A stretch of 32,000 bases of DNA, from the NCBI RefSeq assembly GCF_000146505.1, contig NC_017448.1, forward strand, positions 1,410,001 through 1,442,000, in the 5' to 3' direction. The stretch comes from Fibrobacter succinogenes subsp. succinogenes S85. Its GTDB lineage: Bacteria > Fibrobacterota > Fibrobacteria > Fibrobacterales > Fibrobacteraceae. Every line of letters starts with the position of its first letter. Positions within the stretch are counted from its first letter, which is position 1. Below the pieces are notes generated by a model that worked only from the letters and a program-made list of their open reading frames with translations, was not told the origin of the DNA and did no database searches. Shown piece after piece: positions 20,651 to 32,000 of this stretch. The position numbers and the translations under genes are program-made.

Positions 20651-20662
20651 AGAAGGGCGTTC

Positions 20663-20709
20663 CCGCGCATATACAAAAAAGGCCGCAGCATTTTATTGCT
20701 ACGGTCTTT
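20663..20709. repeat. ~45-bp direct repeat, copy A (terminator-like hairpin)
   Basis: cat-atacaaaaaaggCCGCAGCATTTTATTGCTACGGTCTTT shares a 27-bp identical core plus similar flanks with 26186-26232. Confidence 0.85.
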
Positions 20710-20775
20710 GAACCATTTGGAAAAGGTTATATTAACTTTACAACCACTGGCTCATTACTTTTAAAGGAACAGACG

Positions 20776-25069: not shown

Positions 25070-26176
25070 ATGGCAATTTTTGAAACGCTTTTTATCTTGA
25101 CCGGACTTCTCATGGGCTATGTGTCACGGGGCGGAATGTACCTATTCTTGCTTCCGCTTGCCGTAGTGGCGTTCGTGCTCGCCATTATGAACAGGCCGAG
25201 CCCAACGGGTTCCAGGACAAAAAAAATCGTAAGCTCAATTTTATCGGCAGCTTACCTTGTCACGGTATTTGTCGGCTCACTTACTGCCATATCCCCCAAA
25301 AAGGAACCGACAGTTGCATTTCAGGCTCAGGATTGCAAGGACTTGTCCGGCATGGCAGATCTGGAGCGCGTCAAGGCGGAGATCGCCTTACATGACGACG
25401 AATTAATTGAGTGCGACCCTACAAAAGAGAAGGGCTGCATGGAATTCACCAATTATGGGACAAGAAGCGACAGCAACAGGTTTTACACGGTTTCCTTGCA
25501 CTGGAAATTGCCGAGATTCCAGGTTTATCCTAAAGGGATCCACCGGAAAATCATCAAGGGGCTGTTGGGTGAGGACTTGACCGATGCCGACACGATCCTT
25601 GATTCTGAACATCTAGGAGAAATTCATAAAAAAGCCGTTTACCATCAGGCGGAAAATTACAAGAGAAGCATTGAGTTCGAACTCAGGAATTATCCCAATG
25701 ACTGGTACTTTGACAGCGCCCATACAGAAGTCGCCGCCACCCTCCATTACGAACGCCAGGACAGTATAGATGTTGCGATTGATTCACTGCTGTGGACGAC
25801 TTATTATATTTCAAATGCTGGGTACAATGCCGGTGCCGCCGGAGGTTACTTTTACGAGTATCATCGGACCTTCTCAAAGAAAGACGGGTCGTTGGTTGAT
25901 TCCACTATTTTCAATCCAAATGAAAAGAAGTCAATTGTATCGCTTCTTCGCAAATATGCGGAAAAATACGATGCCAGGGCTGATGCCATCGGCATGAATT
26001 TCCAGCTGGAGCCCTCTTTTTTGAAGGACGGTATCGGTTTTGACGGTTTGTCTTTCGACATCGGCTGGCATACCCACGGTAGTGTGATGATTGTGGTGCC
26101 TTACAAGGAAATTCTACCCTATATGGAAACTTGGGCTCGCCAAAAATTCGGTTTTACAGAAGGTGGAGATCCATAA
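25070..26176 (+). CDS. membrane protein, ~3 N-terminal TM helices + ~290-aa extracytoplasmic domain
   Basis: Hydrophobic N-terminus and AAGGAAA RBS. The extracytoplasmic part has only a faint resemblance to DUF3298/RsiV-type domains (..NAGAAGGYFYEYHRTFSKKDGSLVD..), which I do not consider established. Confidence 0.6.
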   Translation: MAIFETLFILTGLLMGYVSRGGMYLFLLPLAVVAFVLAIMNRPSPTGSRTKKIVSSILSAAYLVTVFVGSLTAISPKKEPTVAFQAQDCKDLSGMADLERVKAEIALHDDELIECDPTKEKGCMEFTNYGTRSDSNRFYTVSLHWKLPRFQVYPKGIHRKIIKGLLGEDLTDADTILDSEHLGEIHKKAVYHQAENYKRSIEFELRNYPNDWYFDSAHTEVAATLHYERQDSIDVAIDSLLWTTYYISNAGYNAGAAGGYFYEYHRTFSKKDGSLVDSTIFNPNEKKSIVSLLRKYAEKYDARADAIGMNFQLEPSFLKDGIGFDGLSFDIGWHTHGSVMIVVPYKEILPYMETWARQKFGFTEGGDP

Positions 26177-26185
26177 TATAGTCCC

Positions 26186-26232
26186 CCGCCATACGCAAAA
26201 AAGACCGCAGCATTTTATTGCTACGGTCTTTA
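26186..26232. repeat. ~45-bp direct repeat, copy B = bidirectional terminator of carB
   Basis: On the minus strand GACCGUAGC-AAUAAAAU-GCUGCGGUC + U6 lies ~55 nt after the carB stop. It is near-identical to 20663-20709. Confidence 0.85.
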
Positions 26233-26284
26233 ATGTTTTTGGATCCCCTCCCGCGCTACGCTTGGTCGAGGATGACTTTAGGCA

Positions 26285-28969
26285 TTACACCTCTTCAATG
26301 CTTGCGTGATATTCCTGAAGAGATTTAACAGCGCCGTGTCCGTTCCTTGCAGCGGCAATACCCTTCACGGTGTTGTAGGCACCGGCGAGGGTTGTGATGT
26401 ACGGAACCTTGTACTTGATGGCGGCCTTACGGATAGCGCTTTCGTCCTTGATGGCGTCGCGCTTTGCCCACGGCGTGTTGATGATGAGGTTCACCTGCTT
26501 GTTCAGGATGATATCGAGAACGTTCGGGCGGCCTTCAGCAATCTTGTTCACCACTTCGCACTTGACACCGGCGGCTTCGTAGAACTTGGCGGTACCTTCG
26601 GTAGCGTAAATCTTGAAGCCGAGCTTCTGGAATTCCTTACCGATTTCAATCGCCTGTTCGGAGAGGTTCACCTTGTCAGAAAGGCTGATGAGCACAGCGC
26701 CTTCGGACGGGAGGAAGGAACCTGCAGCTTCCTGGCTCTTGTAGTAAGCGAGGGCGTAGTCGTCGGAAAGGCCGAGGACTTCACCAGTGGAGCGCATTTC
26801 GGGGCCGAGAACCGGGTCCACCTTCGGGAACTTGTCGAACGGGAACACAGCTTCCTTGGCACCGTGGTGGTTGAACTTCTTGTCCTTGAGCTTGAGGTCT
26901 TCGAGCTTGGCACCGAGCATCAAGCGGGTCGCGAGGCGAGCCATCTGCGTGTTACAGACCTTGGAGACCAGAGGCACCGTGCGGGAGGCACGCGGGTTGG
27001 CTTCGAGGACGAACACCTTGCCGTCTTCGATAGCGTACTGCATGTTCATGAGGCCGCAAACGTGGAGGGCTTCTGCAATCTTGCGCGTGTAATCCTTGAT
27101 GGTTGCGAGGTTTTCCTTCGTGATGGTCACCGGCGGGATAATGCAAGCGGAGTCACCGGAGTGGACACCGGCAAGTTCGACGTGTTCCATCACGGACGGG
27201 ATGTAAACGTGTTCGCCGTCGGAGAGGGCGTCGGCTTCGCATTCCAAAGCGTTGTGGAGGAAGCGGTCGATGAGGAGCGGACGATCCGGAGTCACGCCCA
27301 CGGCCTTCGCCACGTATTCGCGGAGCATGTTTTCATCGTAAATGACTTCCATGCCGCGGCCGCCAAGCACGAAGCTCGGGCGGATCATCACCGGGTAGCC
27401 GCCAATCTGCTTGACGCAAGCGAGGGCTTCGTCGATGTTCGTGGCCATGCCGCTTTCCGGCATCGGGATGCCGAGCTGGTCCATCATCTTGCGGAACAGG
27501 TCGCGGTCTTCGGCGATGTCGATGGAGTCGATGCTCGTGCCGAGAATCTTCACGCCTTCGTCGGAGAGCGCGCGGGCAATGTTCAGCGGAGTCTGGCCAC
27601 CGAACTGCACGATGACGCCAGCCGGCTTTTCCTTATGATAAATCTGGAGAACGTCTTCGAGGCTGACCGGTTCGAAGTACAGCTTGTCGGAAGTATCGTA
27701 GTCGGTAGAAACCGTTTCGGGGTTGCAGTTCACCATGATGGTTTCGTAACCCATTTCGCGGAGAGCCATGGCAGCGTGGCAGCAGCAGTAGTCGAATTCG
27801 ATACCCTGACCGATTCTGTTCGGGCCACCGCCGAGGATCATGATCTTCTTCGGGTTGTTGGAAGCGGTAGATTCGTCCTTGCAGTTGTAGGTGCTGTAGT
27901 AGTAGTACTGGTCCTTCACACCGCTCACCGGCACTGCGCACCAGCCTTCGACCACGCCGAGTTCCGTACGCTTCTTGCGCACGTCCTTTTCGCGGATGCC
28001 GAGGATCTTGGCGATGTACTTGTCGCTGAAGCCGTCCTTCTTGGCCTTGATGAGGAGTTCATCGGCCGGGAGACGGCCCGGAGTCTTGAGCATTTCTTCT
28101 TCGAGTTCCACGAGTTCGCGCATCTGCTGCACGAAGTAGGCCTTTTCGTAGGTGGCGGCGAAGATTTCTTCGTCGGTTGCGCCCTTACGGATAGCTTCGT
28201 ACATCTGGAAGTGGCGTTCGGAAGAAGCGGTCTTCATCATTTCAAGGAGTTCTTCCTTGCTCTTCTTGTTGAAGTCCTTCGCAAAGCCGAGGCCGGAACG
28301 ACCGTTTTCGAGGCCGCGAATAGCCTTCTGGAGGGTTTCCTTGTAGGTCTTGCCAATAGCCATGACTTCGCCCACAGCCTTCATCTGGGTGCCGAGGCAG
28401 TCATCGACGCCGCGGAACTTTTCGAATGCCCAGCGGGCGAACTTGAGCACCACGTAGTCACCGCTCGGGGTGTACTTTTCGAGGCTTCCATCGCGCCAGT
28501 ACGGAATCTGGTCGAGGGTAAGGCCTGCGGCGAGCTTTGCAGAAATGAGGGCGATCGGGAAGCCGGTAGCCTTGGAAGCAAGGGCGGAGGAGCGGCTGGT
28601 ACGCGGGTTGATTTCGATAATCACCACGCGGCCGGTCTTCGGGTCATGAGCGAACTGCACGTTGGTACCGCCAATCACGCCGATGGATTCCACAATCTTG
28701 AAGGCCTTTTCCTTCAGTTCTTTTTCGAGCTTCTTGTCGATGGTGAGGAACGGGGCTGCGCAGAAGGAGTCGCCGGTATGCACGCCCACCGGGTCGATGT
28801 TTTCGATGAAGCAGATGGCGATCATCTGGTTCTTGGAGTCACGCACGACTTCGACTTCGAGTTCTTCCCAACCGAGGATGGATTCTTCGATGAGGCACTG
28901 GTGCGTCATCGAGAGTTCAAGACCGTTACTGCAAATGGTGCGGAGTTCTTCCACGTTGTAGCAGAAGAT
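26285..28969 (-). CDS. carB: carbamoyl-phosphate synthase large subunit, 5'-truncated (lacks ~180 N-terminal codons)
   Basis: It is collinear with CarB from the ...YN-x-EE-L/F...GL-x-LS region to the C-terminal MGS-like domain (IENIDPVGVHTGDS, NPRTSRSSALASKATG, GGGPNRIGQGIEFDYCC, NPRASRTVP). The in-frame sequence upstream reads TAA-IFCYN-VEELRT. The stop at 28970-28972 ends the homology, and no frame further upstream resembles the CarB N-terminus. Confidence 0.88.
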   Translation of the reverse strand: MFCYNVEELRTICSNGLELSMTHQCLIEESILGWEELEVEVVRDSKNQMIAICFIENIDPVGVHTGDSFCAAPFLTIDKKLEKELKEKAFKIVESIGVIGGTNVQFAHDPKTGRVVIIEINPRTSRSSALASKATGFPIALISAKLAAGLTLDQIPYWRDGSLEKYTPSGDYVVLKFARWAFEKFRGVDDCLGTQMKAVGEVMAIGKTYKETLQKAIRGLENGRSGLGFAKDFNKKSKEELLEMMKTASSERHFQMYEAIRKGATDEEIFAATYEKAYFVQQMRELVELEEEMLKTPGRLPADELLIKAKKDGFSDKYIAKILGIREKDVRKKRTELGVVEGWCAVPVSGVKDQYYYYSTYNCKDESTASNNPKKIMILGGGPNRIGQGIEFDYCCCHAAMALREMGYETIMVNCNPETVSTDYDTSDKLYFEPVSLEDVLQIYHKEKPAGVIVQFGGQTPLNIARALSDEGVKILGTSIDSIDIAEDRDLFRKMMDQLGIPMPESGMATNIDEALACVKQIGGYPVMIRPSFVLGGRGMEVIYDENMLREYVAKAVGVTPDRPLLIDRFLHNALECEADALSDGEHVYIPSVMEHVELAGVHSGDSACIIPPVTITKENLATIKDYTRKIAEALHVCGLMNMQYAIEDGKVFVLEANPRASRTVPLVSKVCNTQMARLATRLMLGAKLEDLKLKDKKFNHHGAKEAVFPFDKFPKVDPVLGPEMRSTGEVLGLSDDYALAYYKSQEAAGSFLPSEGAVLISLSDKVNLSEQAIEIGKEFQKLGFKIYATEGTAKFYEAAGVKCEVVNKIAEGRPNVLDIILNKQVNLIINTPWAKRDAIKDESAIRKAAIKYKVPYITTLAGAYNTVKGIAAARNGHGAVKSLQEYHASIEEV

Positions 28970-28972
28970 TTA

Positions 28973-29105
28973 TTCGGGCGTTCCCCACTGGCGTGGGTCG
29001 GGCTATATTTTAGGGGCAGTTGCCGTCGCTTCGCTCGTCACCCGCCTCCTAAAACGGCACCACAGTGCCGCCCCAAGGGGTCACTATCCCTAACGCATTT
29101 TCAAC
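28973..29105. other. GC-rich hairpin-rich element of unknown nature at the carB/island junction
   Basis: Local stems are cccac-tggc-gtggg, ttttagggg...cctcctaaaa (9 bp enclosing ~30 nt) and cggcac-caca-gtgccg. No coding frame is open. The composition is unlike the AT-rich DNA that follows. Confidence 0.4.
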
Positions 29106-29125
29106 CACCTTAACTCGAATAGTTA

Positions 29126-29134
29126 TGATATAAT
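29126..29134 (+). promoter_or_regulatory. extended -10 box (TGATATAAT) upstream of the DprA-like gene
   Basis: A TGnTATAAT match lies ~145 nt upstream of ATG 29278; putative only. Confidence 0.3.
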
Positions 29135-29277
29135 GGAATTCATCAGAAGACAAACGATGAAGTTTTTTTTGCAATATCTGCGCCATAGTCTTTTTCTTTT
29201 TTTCTTACGATTTTTGTACGAAAAAAGATATATTTGTTTTTAGAAACCATAAGCCACATTTGCAACGGATTTTTTAC

Positions 29278-30126
29278 ATGAACACAAAAGAATACAAAGA
29301 ACTTTTGGCTTATGAATTTTTATGGAGCAAAGAGAATTCCACATTAAAAAAAATGTCTCTAACCCTCAACAACGGTTCACTTCTAGCTTCTGAAAAACTA
29401 AAAGAGGAAATGTTTTTTGATGATGCCGAATTATATGAAATTGATAATGCATTGAAAGAACGATCTAAAGCATTCTCCGTTCTCTTCAAAAACGATGAAC
29501 GTTTTCCTAAAGGTTTACTTAATGTCAAATACCCCTTAGGAATGTTCTATTACAAAGGAAACCTCGATCTCTTAAAAAATGTATGTGTATCAGTAGTCGG
29601 ATCAAGGCACGTGAGTCCTAAAGGAAAAATTAGAACCGAAAAACTTATTAAAGAACTTCATTCAAATACCACCATTGTTTCAGGTTTAGCAAAAGGTGTA
29701 GATACCGCGGCCTTAACTACAGCAATCAGCCTTGGGAAAAAAGTTATAGGAGTTATTGGAACCCCTATTGACCATTATTATCCAAAAGAGAATAAAGAAC
29801 TCCAAGATGAAATTGCAACCAATCATCTGCTCATCAGCCAAGTTCCCCTTTACAAATACGACAAGCAATCTTTTGTGACAAAAAAAATGTATTTCCCAGA
29901 ACGTAATGTTGTTATGGCTGCAATCTCAGATGCAACTATAATTGTAGAAGCGTCGGAAACAAGCGGAACACATTCCCAAGCGAAAGCCTGTTTTGACTTG
30001 GGAAAAAAATTGTTCATCCTCAATTCATGTTTTGAAAACCATGAAATTACTTGGCCAACAAAGTATCTAGAAAAAGGTGCAGTAAGGGTAAGGGCTATAA
30101 CTGATATAAAAATTCTTAAGGACTAG
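29278..30126 (+). CDS. DprA/Smf-like (SLOG/Rossmann-fold) protein
   Basis: VSVVGSRHVSPKG, VSGLAKGVDTAA, GTPIDHYYPKEN, FPERNVVMAAIS and VEASETSGTHSQA reproduce the DprA DNA_processg_A motif series. I took ATG 29278 rather than the TTG at 29260. Confidence 0.83.
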   Translation: MNTKEYKELLAYEFLWSKENSTLKKMSLTLNNGSLLASEKLKEEMFFDDAELYEIDNALKERSKAFSVLFKNDERFPKGLLNVKYPLGMFYYKGNLDLLKNVCVSVVGSRHVSPKGKIRTEKLIKELHSNTTIVSGLAKGVDTAALTTAISLGKKVIGVIGTPIDHYYPKENKELQDEIATNHLLISQVPLYKYDKQSFVTKKMYFPERNVVMAAISDATIIVEASETSGTHSQAKACFDLGKKLFILNSCFENHEITWPTKYLEKGAVRVRAITDIKILKD

Positions 30127-30132
30127 GGGGTT

Positions 30133-30756
30133 ATGCATATGGCGTGGGAAAAATTAAGCGGGACTTCAGTCGGTTTAGAAGATACAGATGAGATTTGGAG
30201 ATACGAAATATATTGCCCTGAAGAACGGGACGATTATTTCAGCGATTTACACAATTTAAAAAAATCTACCGATAAAAAAGAAAAATATGAGTGGCGCTAT
30301 AAAACAGAAGCAATTGCTAAATGTAGTGGATTCTTAAAAGAATTCCGATTTCAAGCGGAAAACCCTTTTATTATTCCGATGCCCCCGTCAAAGAAAAAAG
30401 GAACCCCAGAATATGACAATCGATTAGTGCAGATAATCAAAAAAGTGACAAATGTAACTTGTCTAGATATTTTTGATGTAAAGGAGAGCGTCGAAAGCAC
30501 TCACAAGCCAGAACAAACTAAAGATCTAATCGCAATACAGAACAATCTTGTGATGTCAACAACTGAAAAAATAGAAATACTGGATTTAGTGTATGTGCTA
30601 GATGATGTACTTACAACAGGAACTCATTTTAAAGCTATAAAAAATAAAATTTTGGAAATAAACCCGGACATCCGTGTTATTGGGTTATTTTTTTACAAAC
30701 CCGAAGGTCCCCTAGACTACTATAAATACCTTCGAGAAAACAATAAGAACGGGTAA
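30133..30756 (+). CDS. phosphoribosyltransferase (PRTase)-fold protein
   Basis: The PRPP-binding loop VYVLDDVLTTGTHF is near the C-terminus. The gene starts 6 nt after the DprA-like stop (alternative ATG at 30139). There is no ComFC-type CxxC zinc finger in the N-terminal half. Confidence 0.78.
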   Translation: MHMAWEKLSGTSVGLEDTDEIWRYEIYCPEERDDYFSDLHNLKKSTDKKEKYEWRYKTEAIAKCSGFLKEFRFQAENPFIIPMPPSKKKGTPEYDNRLVQIIKKVTNVTCLDIFDVKESVESTHKPEQTKDLIAIQNNLVMSTTEKIEILDLVYVLDDVLTTGTHFKAIKNKILEINPDIRVIGLFFYKPEGPLDYYKYLRENNKNG

Positions 30757-30912
30757 AGAAAGGCTGGTTTCATTACTGCACTGAAAGTGCAAGGATTTAA
30801 CCATTTATTGGACAATAAACTTATTTTTTTAGATTTTTGGCATTACCTTTCTGATCATTTCTTTTATAATATTTATCAATTTATTTATAGCATTTTCAAT
30901 TTCTTTATAGGA

Positions 30913-31506
30913 TTATTCTTTCGGGATTGGCATTGTAAGAACGGAGACTTCTATTCGATTCTTGTTAGAAAAAACGTTCACTCCCAAAACGATAATTTTT
31001 TCTTCAGTAATAAACAAACGTTCATCCGAAAAGAAAACAGGAATTTTTTCATTATGCCATTTTTTTCCACGATCTATACTGAAATACAAATAATGAAGTA
31101 ACGTAGAACCAGTCATTTGGAAATCGAAAATACCTACAATCAAACTATCCTTAACAAAAAAATCAGATGGTTTCATATATCTAGAGCGCCATAAGTGCCA
31201 CTTATTCGGAATAGAACAATATTTTTCATACTCATCTCCTGATTTATACAAAATTCGAACCTCATGCGTTGAAGTAGTTGTTTCATCATAACCGCAAACA
31301 ATCCAATTCCTATTATTTTGAGCATATCTTCTTTTAGGCCCACAAAGTCCACCAAAGTCTTCTGACGGAACGCTTTCTTTTTTTATTTGTCCTTTATTTT
31401 TCAAGTATTCTTTTCCTATTAAATAATCGGGAATGTACGAATCACTCTTCATATTAATATTAGTATATGTCATGTTCCATGTTTTGCCACCATCTTCAGT
31501 CCACAA
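30913..31506 (-). CDS. BNR/Asp-box repeat protein, C-terminal part of a frameshifted gene
   Basis: Asp-box motifs are TEDGGKTW and SIDRGKKW. There is no ATG start (the track uses TTG). The frame stays open upstream to 31539 and would join 31509-31823 after +1 nt in the A8 run. Confidence 0.6.
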   Translation of the reverse strand: MWTEDGGKTWNMTYTNINMKSDSYIPDYLIGKEYLKNKGQIKKESVPSEDFGGLCGPKRRYAQNNRNWIVCGYDETTTSTHEVRILYKSGDEYEKYCSIPNKWHLWRSRYMKPSDFFVKDSLIVGIFDFQMTGSTLLHYLYFSIDRGKKWHNEKIPVFFSDERLFITEEKIIVLGVNVFSNKNRIEVSVLTMPIPKE

Positions 31507-31508
31507 TG

Positions 31509-31802
31509 CTACAGGATCACCTTTTTTTTCAAGCTAGATTTTAAACTGGTAAATATAGCGAATGAACTTTCATTTTCTATTACAACTTTTCCAATATTTT
31601 CAAACACCCCACTAAAAACAAAGTCTTTTTTTTCAAAGGAACTCGAAAAACCTTCAGAAATCCATTCATCATCAAATTCTCCAAGTTTAAGCAAGCCCCA
31701 TAAAAGCAATGGACTAAAAAAAACTATAACAATAGGAATAAAACAACCGATTGTATAAAAAACACCAAATTTAGTAAATACAATTTTAAACAACTTATGC
31801 AT
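31509..31802 (-). CDS. membrane-anchored N-terminal part of the same split gene
   Basis: MHKLFKIVFTKFGVFYTIGCFIPIVIVFFSPLLLWGLL is a signal anchor. It ends ...SLKKKVIL* just after the A8 tract (T8 on the plus strand, 31522-31529). Confidence 0.5.
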   Translation of the reverse strand: MHKLFKIVFTKFGVFYTIGCFIPIVIVFFSPLLLWGLLKLGEFDDEWISEGFSSSFEKKDFVFSGVFENIGKVVIENESSFAIFTSLKSSLKKKVIL

Positions 31803-31838
31803 ATTAATTTCTGACACAAACAAAGTCTCAGCAAAAAA

Positions 31839-32000
31839 TCATCTCCCAAACATCCTTAATTGTGTTTTCACCTGCCGCGAAATAGCATCTTGTAAGAAAT
31901 TATCATACATTCCTTTAATCTCCCTCGCATAAGAATCAACATAACATTCCTTAATTACTGATAGAGCCTGCTCTCTGCCTTCCCAAAGGTCAGGTTTATC
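31839..32000 (-). CDS. hypothetical protein, C-terminal 53 codons (N-terminus beyond the window end)
   Basis: The minus-strand frame is open from 32000 to TGA at 31839-31841 (..DKPDLWEGREQALSVIKECYVDSYAREIKGMYDNFLQDAISRQVKTQLRMFGR*). I recognise no domain. Confidence 0.35.
   Translation of the reverse strand, partial: DKPDLWEGREQALSVIKECYVDSYAREIKGMYDNFLQDAISRQVKTQLRMFGR

Follow-up and report, generated by a model that had tools for sequence, protein, structure and literature searches.

A displaced carB 3' fragment at an island boundary in Fibrobacter succinogenes S85 is capped by a conserved structured element

RESULTS

A carB fragment and element E meet at a break

A window of 32,000 nucleotides of the Fibrobacter succinogenes subsp. 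succinogenes S85 genome (bases 1410001 to 1442000 of one finished contig, 3,843,004 bp long and 99.99% complete) was analyzed around an abrupt break in the carB gene, and positions refer to this window unless they are given as genome coordinates. The minus strand carries a 3' portion of carB that ends some 180 codons short of the start of the gene, and an element rich in guanine plus cytosine (GC), termed E here, lies directly at the break. The features that meet at this point are as follows.

26285 to 28969, minus strand: displaced 3' portion of carB (codons ~180 to 1072 plus the TAA stop), from the open reading frame (ORF) list, its translation, TIGR01369/NF003671 and a 2,681-bp direct repeat
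28970 to 28972, minus strand: in-frame TAA adjoining the 5' end of the carB fragment, at the breakpoint (the plus strand reads tta)
28972 to 29097, plus strand: element E, GC rich and with multiple hairpins, which caps the break and is antisense to the carB fragment (nhmmer and covariance-model match, 28967 to 29101)

The frame of the carB fragment was open from 28969 to the stop codon at 26285 to 26287, giving 894 codons and a translation that starts IFCYNVEELRT. It matched positions 180 to 1050 of TIGR01369 (1031 bits) and positions 181 to 1058 of NF003671 (1162 bits). The full-length CarB architecture, with two ATP-grasp halves, an oligomerisation domain and an MGS-like domain, was incomplete in the fragment and complete in a distal copy of the gene. 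On the 5' side of the break the 126-nt noncoding element E was followed by AT-rich DNA with plus-strand genes, and the GC content dropped from 0.56 to 0.58 over carB to 0.32 to 0.37 past ~29.1 kb. No frame upstream of the break encoded the first ~180 CarB residues. An earlier note on this DNA had read CarB homology from about residue 180 to the C terminus, an in-frame TAA, a missing N terminus, and a coincidence of the break with a shift in composition and with genes on the opposite strand; ORF translation, model coverage and direct reading of the sequence agreed with each of these points. The note had also taken the break for an island boundary whose far end lies outside the window, and this end was located 44.7 kb away.

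An intact carB gene lies at the other end of the island

A whole-genome search detected three CarB-like loci, namely, the fragment, an intact carB gene and a paralogue. The intact gene (genome 1480992 to 1484210, minus strand, 1072 amino acids) lies 44.7 kb past the fragment, outside the window, and covers positions 4 to 1050 of TIGR01369 and extends to position 1058 of NF003671. The essential gene that the earlier note had supposed to be disrupted is hence complete at the far end of this island. A natural division of CarB into two polypeptides also found no support, as no gene of its own was found for the N-terminal ~180 residues. The paralogue (genome 226574 to 229753) was full length, 48% identical, and had the top TIGR01369 score of the genome; ~150 bp downstream of it were 74% identical to a stretch downstream of the intact carB gene.

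The fragment and the intact gene form a direct repeat (genome 1436286 to 1438966 and 1480993 to 1483673) of 2,681 bp with 110 mismatches and no gaps, corresponding to 95.9% nucleotide identity. The homology stopped at position 28966 on the side of the break and ended exactly at the stop codon on the other, and the stop codons themselves differed (TAA versus TAG). Of the 110 differences, 108 left the protein unchanged, such that the two copies differed by 2 amino acids (99.8% protein identity), had a synonymous divergence (dS) of 0.18 and a ratio of nonsynonymous to synonymous divergence (dN/dS) of 0.03, and the frame of the fragment was intact. This low ratio and the mostly synonymous nature of the differences indicated that the copies had diverged as working genes in separate lineages and were joined recently. 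Judged from these comparisons, the two copies are alleles of different lineages combined by transfer and not products of a duplication in place.

The divergence was not evenly spread. A tract of 626 bp (nucleotides 121 to 746 from the stop codon) was perfectly identical between the copies and was flanked by sequence with 4 to 6% divergence, a pattern that marks an exchange between the carB copies, either by homologous recombination or by gene conversion. In order to assign the resident copy, window-wise nearest relatives and site patterns were examined, an approach that was informative for the 3'-most 130 nt only. Over these 130 nt, the fragment has the alleles of G018, G059 and G037, relatives that share its downstream flank, and the intact gene matches the alleles of other lineages. 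This distribution of alleles fits a fragment that would be the resident 3' end of carB and an intact gene whose 3' end would have been imported.

Element E is conserved in structure and restricted to one family

Element E measures 126 nt at the carB break and ~130 to 170 nt across loci. In an alignment of 52 distinct copies, 95.9% of the cells were paired, compared to 86% in column shuffles and 38 to 50% with slid partners, and compensatory double changes were detected in 19 of the 40 pairs. Two hairpins varied in both length and sequence with retention of pairing, and several blocks were invariant in sequence. Element E is thus a conserved structured element with strong covariation. The signal for a strand was ambiguous, with one invariant G-U pair on the plus strand, but with 44 A-C cells versus 15 other G-U cells. 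A search of Rfam 15 with positions 26000 to 32000 (both strands, E-value of ≤1) found no family for E and gave one chance snoRNA-like match away from the element; ARAGORN found no tRNA or tmRNA at E, and literature searches found no description of the element or its architecture in Fibrobacter.

Copies of E were found in 96 of 101 Fibrobacter genomes, at 1 to 18 copies each, and in 43 of 52 Fibrobacteraceae genomes, with one weak match only elsewhere in the phylum. The S85 genome has seven copies, including the one at the carB break. A single conserved master copy was considered and rejected because the loci and contexts differed in genomes with one or two copies, and E is thus not a fixed housekeeping RNA gene. 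At the breaks, E was always present in a fixed orientation, antisense to the displaced fragment, and the mean GC content beside it (43 loci) was 52% on the 5' side and 39% on the 3' side.

A second sequence of 64 to 100 bp, often located 27 to 100 bp from E, was evaluated for two roles, marking the far end of the unit or flanking a guide-like spacer, and was rejected, as it belongs to a dispersed family resembling repetitive extragenic palindromes or miniature inverted-repeat transposable elements (REP/MITE-like). This palindromic family had 47 matches genome-wide, with ends of CAAATGC...GCATTTG, in either orientation and at variable distances from E, and the copies near E are probably secondary insertions. 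One copy was situated directly after the stop codon of the intact carB gene (genome 1480946 to 1480989) and another at 2683645 to 2683708. Copies were also observed inside displaced gene fragments 27 to 100 bp from E, one of them with a 7-bp target duplication.

The same layout recurs at other genes and in relatives

Three other E copies in S85 were located beside displaced gene copies. At 2683 kb, E adjoined a displaced ileS 3' fragment with the intact ileS gene 3.4 kb away (86% identity); at 3542 kb, a displaced whole-gene copy of frdB whose counterpart was 8.6 kb away (98% identity); and at 152 kb, a displaced 3' fragment of a pyruvate:ferredoxin oxidoreductase (PFOR) gene whose counterpart was 4.2 kb away (95.5% identity). 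A flanking gene repeat was absent at the three remaining S85 copies, two of which lacked any repeat, and the third, at 1611 kb, was flanked only by short 147-bp repeats. The junction of the PFOR locus was common to several species and the cargo was different.

The ileS locus (genome 2680318 to 2684490) has two successive displaced 3' fragments after its 3.4-kb islet, the first of which is capped by E, and the islet contains a GIY-YIG-type ORF. In the frdB locus (3533760 to 3543165), the duplicated gene begins just past the frdA stop codon with E at the junction, and the 8.6-kb islet has restriction and methylase-like genes. At 1611604 to 1614488, E is followed by three ~147-bp repeats that are 92 to 97% identical, and a fourth copy is located 200 kb away (1810508 to 1810677).

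In relatives, displaced carB 3' fragments of differing lengths, from one to three per locus, often trailed the intact carB gene. E capped all eight of the fragments that were examined, and its orientation relative to the fragment was always the same. The truncation of carB in S85 is therefore not a chance event, as seven related assemblies show the same E-capped break at these eight additional carB fragments. The fragments were 150 to 450 codons long with internal deletions and inserted small repeat elements, and the positions of the carB breaks differed between units (701, 1307, 1369 and 2681 nt from the stop codon). Among 44 further E loci from ~35 genomes, 20 had a repeat within 6 kb, and 19 of 40 E loci from other genomes lay directly beside a break inside a long core gene. 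Genes with E-capped breaks in relatives were carB, valS, leuS, thrS and the gene for V-ATPase subunit I. The left edge of the repeat fell within a few nucleotides of the stop codon of the target in at least 11 loci. No common sequence was detected at the breaks, and the targets were many unrelated genes.

Two insertions downstream of carB

Comparison with relatives, for which one genome per species was used, indicated the ancestral layout. In G018, DNA collinear with the window from position 20656 down to 10000 (94% identity) resumes only 1.4 kb past carB, and the upstream flank of the S85 intact carB gene is likewise collinear with relatives. The 1.4-kb spacing and the collinear flanks indicated at least two insertion events downstream of carB in S85, which together brought in ~50 kb. 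Two copies of the carB terminator mark the smaller addition.

20659 to 20721, minus strand: carB terminator copy A, a 63-nt direct repeat of copy B with 81% identity
26181 to 26243, minus strand: carB terminator region, copy B, a 63-nt direct repeat of 20659 to 20721 with 81% identity

Between these repeats is a 5.5-kb module that encodes two DUF285/BspA-type repeat proteins (DUF285, 3.5e-148) and has small membrane and peptidase-like ORFs and no element E. It entered downstream of carB as a separate and older insertion.

The island carries defense and toxin-complex-like cargo

The larger addition, a unit of ~44.7 kb, has ~42 kb of cargo between the carB copies. The part of the cargo that falls inside the window has the following features.

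29098 to 29259, no strand assigned: AT-rich spacer from E to the first cargo gene, from sequence and composition
29260 to 30126, plus strand: ShosA, DprA/SLOG-like, the first cargo gene (PADLOC ShosA, 3.3e-78; Pfam DNA_processg_A, 9.6e-51)
30133 to 30756, plus strand: ShosT, phosphoribosyltransferase-like (PADLOC ShosT, 3.1e-27)
31839 to 32000, minus strand: C-terminal tip of a 2237-amino-acid TcB/TcC-like protein that continues past the window (Pfam SpvB, TcdB_toxin_midN and RHS_repeat)

The ShosA and ShosT genes were adjacent with 6 nt between them, the arrangement of a ShosTA defense system. From the break onward, the cargo consists of ShosTA, small ORFs, a TcB/TcC-like pair, a glycosyltransferase, a TcA-like protein and a second block. 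The two TcB/TcC-like proteins of ~2200 amino acids (SpvB, TcdB_mid and RHS repeat) lie within a 5.9-kb direct repeat with 96% identity, and their C-terminal tips differ, with small unannotated ORFs after each. The TcA-like protein has 3318 amino acids (TcA_TcB_BD, 1e-99). The Tc/ABC toxin-complex-like locus spans genome 1441839 to 1469483 and is named from domain matches alone. The second block comprises an amine oxidase-like flavoprotein, GtrA, an S8 peptidase and DUF4423.

Recombinases are scarce in the genome and were not detected in the island

Pfam analysis detected no integrase, transposase or conjugation domains in 19 of the 22 island ORFs, with o10, o19 and the second toxin-complex copy remaining unscanned; the short ORFs of the 5.5-kb module were outside this integrase domain scan. 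Genome-wide, PF00589 gave three matches, none within 1.436 to 1.485 Mb, and these tyrosine recombinases consisted of two Xer-like proteins and one protein of 278 amino acids (3167996 to 3168832). No matches were obtained genome-wide for serine recombinases (PF00239), IS110, IS200/Y1 or TnpB. The 278-amino-acid recombinase was considered as a trans-acting partner of E and rejected, as some E-bearing genomes lack it and E-free genomes have it. Clustering of the ORFs at 47 E loci yielded no recurrent recombinase, and the only recurrent families were antisense artifacts and a lipoprotein family. One reverse transcriptase was observed in the genome, an 838-amino-acid ORF at 2050 kb, outside the island. 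Overall, Fibrobacter genomes are almost devoid of classical mobile-element enzymes.

DISCUSSION

The arrangement at the carB locus is probably best explained by a displaced resident end of carB, an imported replacement end and an integration that was anchored by homology. In this scenario, ~44.7 kb of foreign DNA, consisting of E, the ~42 kb of cargo and a 2.68-kb replacement carB 3' portion (from about codon 180 to the stop codon), would have recombined into carB and displaced the resident 3' end. The product, read in the sense of the gene, would be an intact carB made of the resident 5' part and the imported 3' part, then the cargo, E, the displaced resident 3' fragment and the native terminator. 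Such an insertion would be tolerated because the essential gene is regenerated, and the carB fragment would be a recent remnant without function.

The integration would most likely have used the homologous recombination of the cell itself, anchored in the conserved gene. This product could have arisen by two routes. A circular unit with a 3' gene fragment may have integrated by a single (Campbell-type) crossover, or linear DNA may have entered by homology-facilitated illegitimate recombination with its nonhomologous end at E. We infer the route of recombination, and any role for E, from what the sequences show directly, namely, how the carB copies are arranged and how they diverge, the tract of recombination between them, the recurrence of the layout and the finding of no integrase in the island. 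The topology that either route would produce was present, with an intact and a 5'-truncated copy in direct orientation and a 626-bp exchange tract. A homology-based route is favored by the lack of a dedicated recombinase, the long diverged repeats and the varying break points, as well as by the identical tract, which points to exchange between the copies, and by the identity of the targets, which are the most conserved genes of the genome. On these grounds, we consider such a route rather likely.

Several observations weigh against this explanation. Plain homologous recombination does not need the invariable presence and orientation of E, which hints at a specific step there, and this step might involve cutting, a DNA end or a site for a recombinase. 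A recombinase of an unrecognised family may also have taken part. Neither a circular form nor an empty site from the same species was obtained, and exact searches of public metagenome and genome contigs gave no junction match. Outside the 3'-most 130 nt, the carB polymorphisms were mosaic across the genus, and the resident copy was not assignable there. Finally, the 63-nt terminator repeats around the 5.5-kb module are short for RecA-dependent integration.

The strongest competing explanation, which we regard as possible and clearly less probable, is that E is a recognition site for a trans-acting recombinase or nuclease, in the form either of folded DNA or of an RNA that serves as guide or scaffold. 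Such an enzyme would join the unit to its target at the boundary of E, and the 3' part borne by the unit would restore the gene, in the manner of islands that target tRNA genes. The position of E at every break, always antisense and with the asymmetric GC content of its flanks (52% on the 5' side versus 39% on the 3' side), would suit a site of this kind, as would its covarying structure with invariant sequence blocks, its multicopy nature within a single bacterial family and the lack of a recombinase in the cargo units, a property shared with integron cassettes. It is tentatively conceivable that E is the active signal of undescribed integrase-less mobile cargo units of the Fibrobacteraceae that are composed of E, cargo and a 3' copy of an essential gene (carB, aminoacyl-tRNA synthetase genes, PFOR or frdB) and whose insertion would rebuild the gene and displace its old 3' end; as part of that proposal, E, as folded DNA or RNA, might set the end of the transferred molecule or guide an enzyme to the junction, which is equally speculative. 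However, no candidate enzyme emerged, as the genome has only Xer-like recombinases and one small tyrosine recombinase whose presence was not correlated with E, and the genome-wide searches were negative for serine recombinases, IS110, IS200 and TnpB. The carB breaks also varied in position, the targets were unrelated, the breaks lacked a common sequence, and the GTT...AAC order of the E stem, inspected against the attC consensus, was opposite to that of integron attC cores.

Segmental duplication of carB in place, followed by a 5' deletion in one copy and a later insertion of cargo, would require no import of an allele and can yield direct repeats with both copies in the same orientation, as seen here. 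A redundant copy should, however, gain nonsynonymous changes, frameshifts and stop codons, and 108 of the 110 differences were silent in an intact frame. The termination of homology at stop codons that differ, the distinct allele affinities of the two copies and the recurrence of the layout at many genes and genomes also argue against a duplication in place, which we find very improbable. There is similarly little prospect that a truncated CarB is expressed and retained by selection, either as a stand-alone second synthetase half or as a regulatory subunit. The intact 894-codon frame, a GTG codon at 28954 and the low dN/dS ratio would be in keeping with such a function. The low ratio is accounted for by divergence that predates the joining of the two copies, however, and most of the first ATP-grasp module, which is needed for carboxyphosphate formation, is missing according to the model coverage. 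In relatives, moreover, the corresponding fragments are much shorter, internally deleted and interrupted by small repeat elements. Least credible is the chimeric assembly that the earlier note had offered as its second explanation (a false join or misplaced repeat at 28.97 kb), for which the abrupt break and matching change in composition could speak, since S85 is represented by one finished contig (3.84 Mb, 99.99% complete), the 4% divergence between the copies excludes a collapsed or duplicated repeat, an assembler cannot invent 110 mostly synonymous differences, and the same type of junction was present in more than 10 independent assemblies and at three other S85 loci.

An origin of the fragment by homology-anchored displacement would bear on annotation, as the carB fragment should be described as a displaced remnant and not as a broken essential gene in a strain that has a complete carB and a paralogue. 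Across the family, Fibrobacter genomes take up defense and toxin cargo right after the stop codons of their most conserved genes, apparently without the usual integrases. If E is an active signal, it would point to a new mechanism for harmless insertion of DNA at essential genes; if E is passive, the loci would still illustrate cleanly, in nature, how islands are captured through homology and how their cassettes turn over.

Islands and prophages that carry an integrase split and then restore a tRNA or protein gene, as described for Islander-type (PMC4383910) and dusA-targeting (PMC4482086) elements. The carB locus resembles these in having a regenerated functional target at one end and a displaced fragment at the other, here as a 2,681-bp direct repeat. 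It differs in that no island integrase was found in the ORFs scanned, that the 2.68-kb repeat is 4% diverged in place of a short identical core, that the break points vary within the gene and fall in many target genes, and that the displaced fragment is capped by E, which is structured and conserved. A regenerated target together with a displaced fragment at the island ends is the classical hallmark of gene-targeting islands (PMC4383910). As both an integrase and a short fixed core are absent, the locus was not classed as a gene-targeting island.

In homology-facilitated illegitimate recombination, incoming DNA is anchored at a conserved stretch and its other end is joined without homology (PMC3240628), and this process has been proposed for serial displacement at type VI secretion system (T6SS) and Rhs loci (PMC5361080). 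The product topology of this process, and of Campbell-type integration, is identical to that of the carB locus. Experimental events are rare and sporadic, whereas the Fibrobacter outcome recurs across the family, is aimed at essential genes and is always accompanied by E. The orphan 3' modules of rhs, cdiA and T6SS effector loci are serial displaced 3' pieces downstream of a full-length gene, which form when transfer brings in new 3' ends (PMC5361080), and are matched by the arrays of two to three fragments at carB in relatives. In those systems, however, the variable 3' tip is the payload, whereas carB contributes a 3' part of conserved housekeeping sequence, and its payload consists of unrelated cargo directly past the stop codon.

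The units also resemble integron cassettes in being recombinase-less and bounded by a structured repeat. Integron cassettes, including those with Vibrio VCR repeats, are recombinase-less units bounded by a repeat of ~60 to 140 nt that is conserved mainly in structure, and the attC consensus is R''(RYYYAAC)...R'(GTTRRRY). The Fibrobacter loci differ in having no IntI-like integrase, attI or cassette array, in having one E per island and not one per gene, and in being flanked by gene fragments, and the closing stem of E, GCGTT...AACGC, has the reverse order of the attC cores. The new features of the Fibrobacter loci are a displacement pattern found across the family and an uncatalogued structured element at the junctions that it creates.

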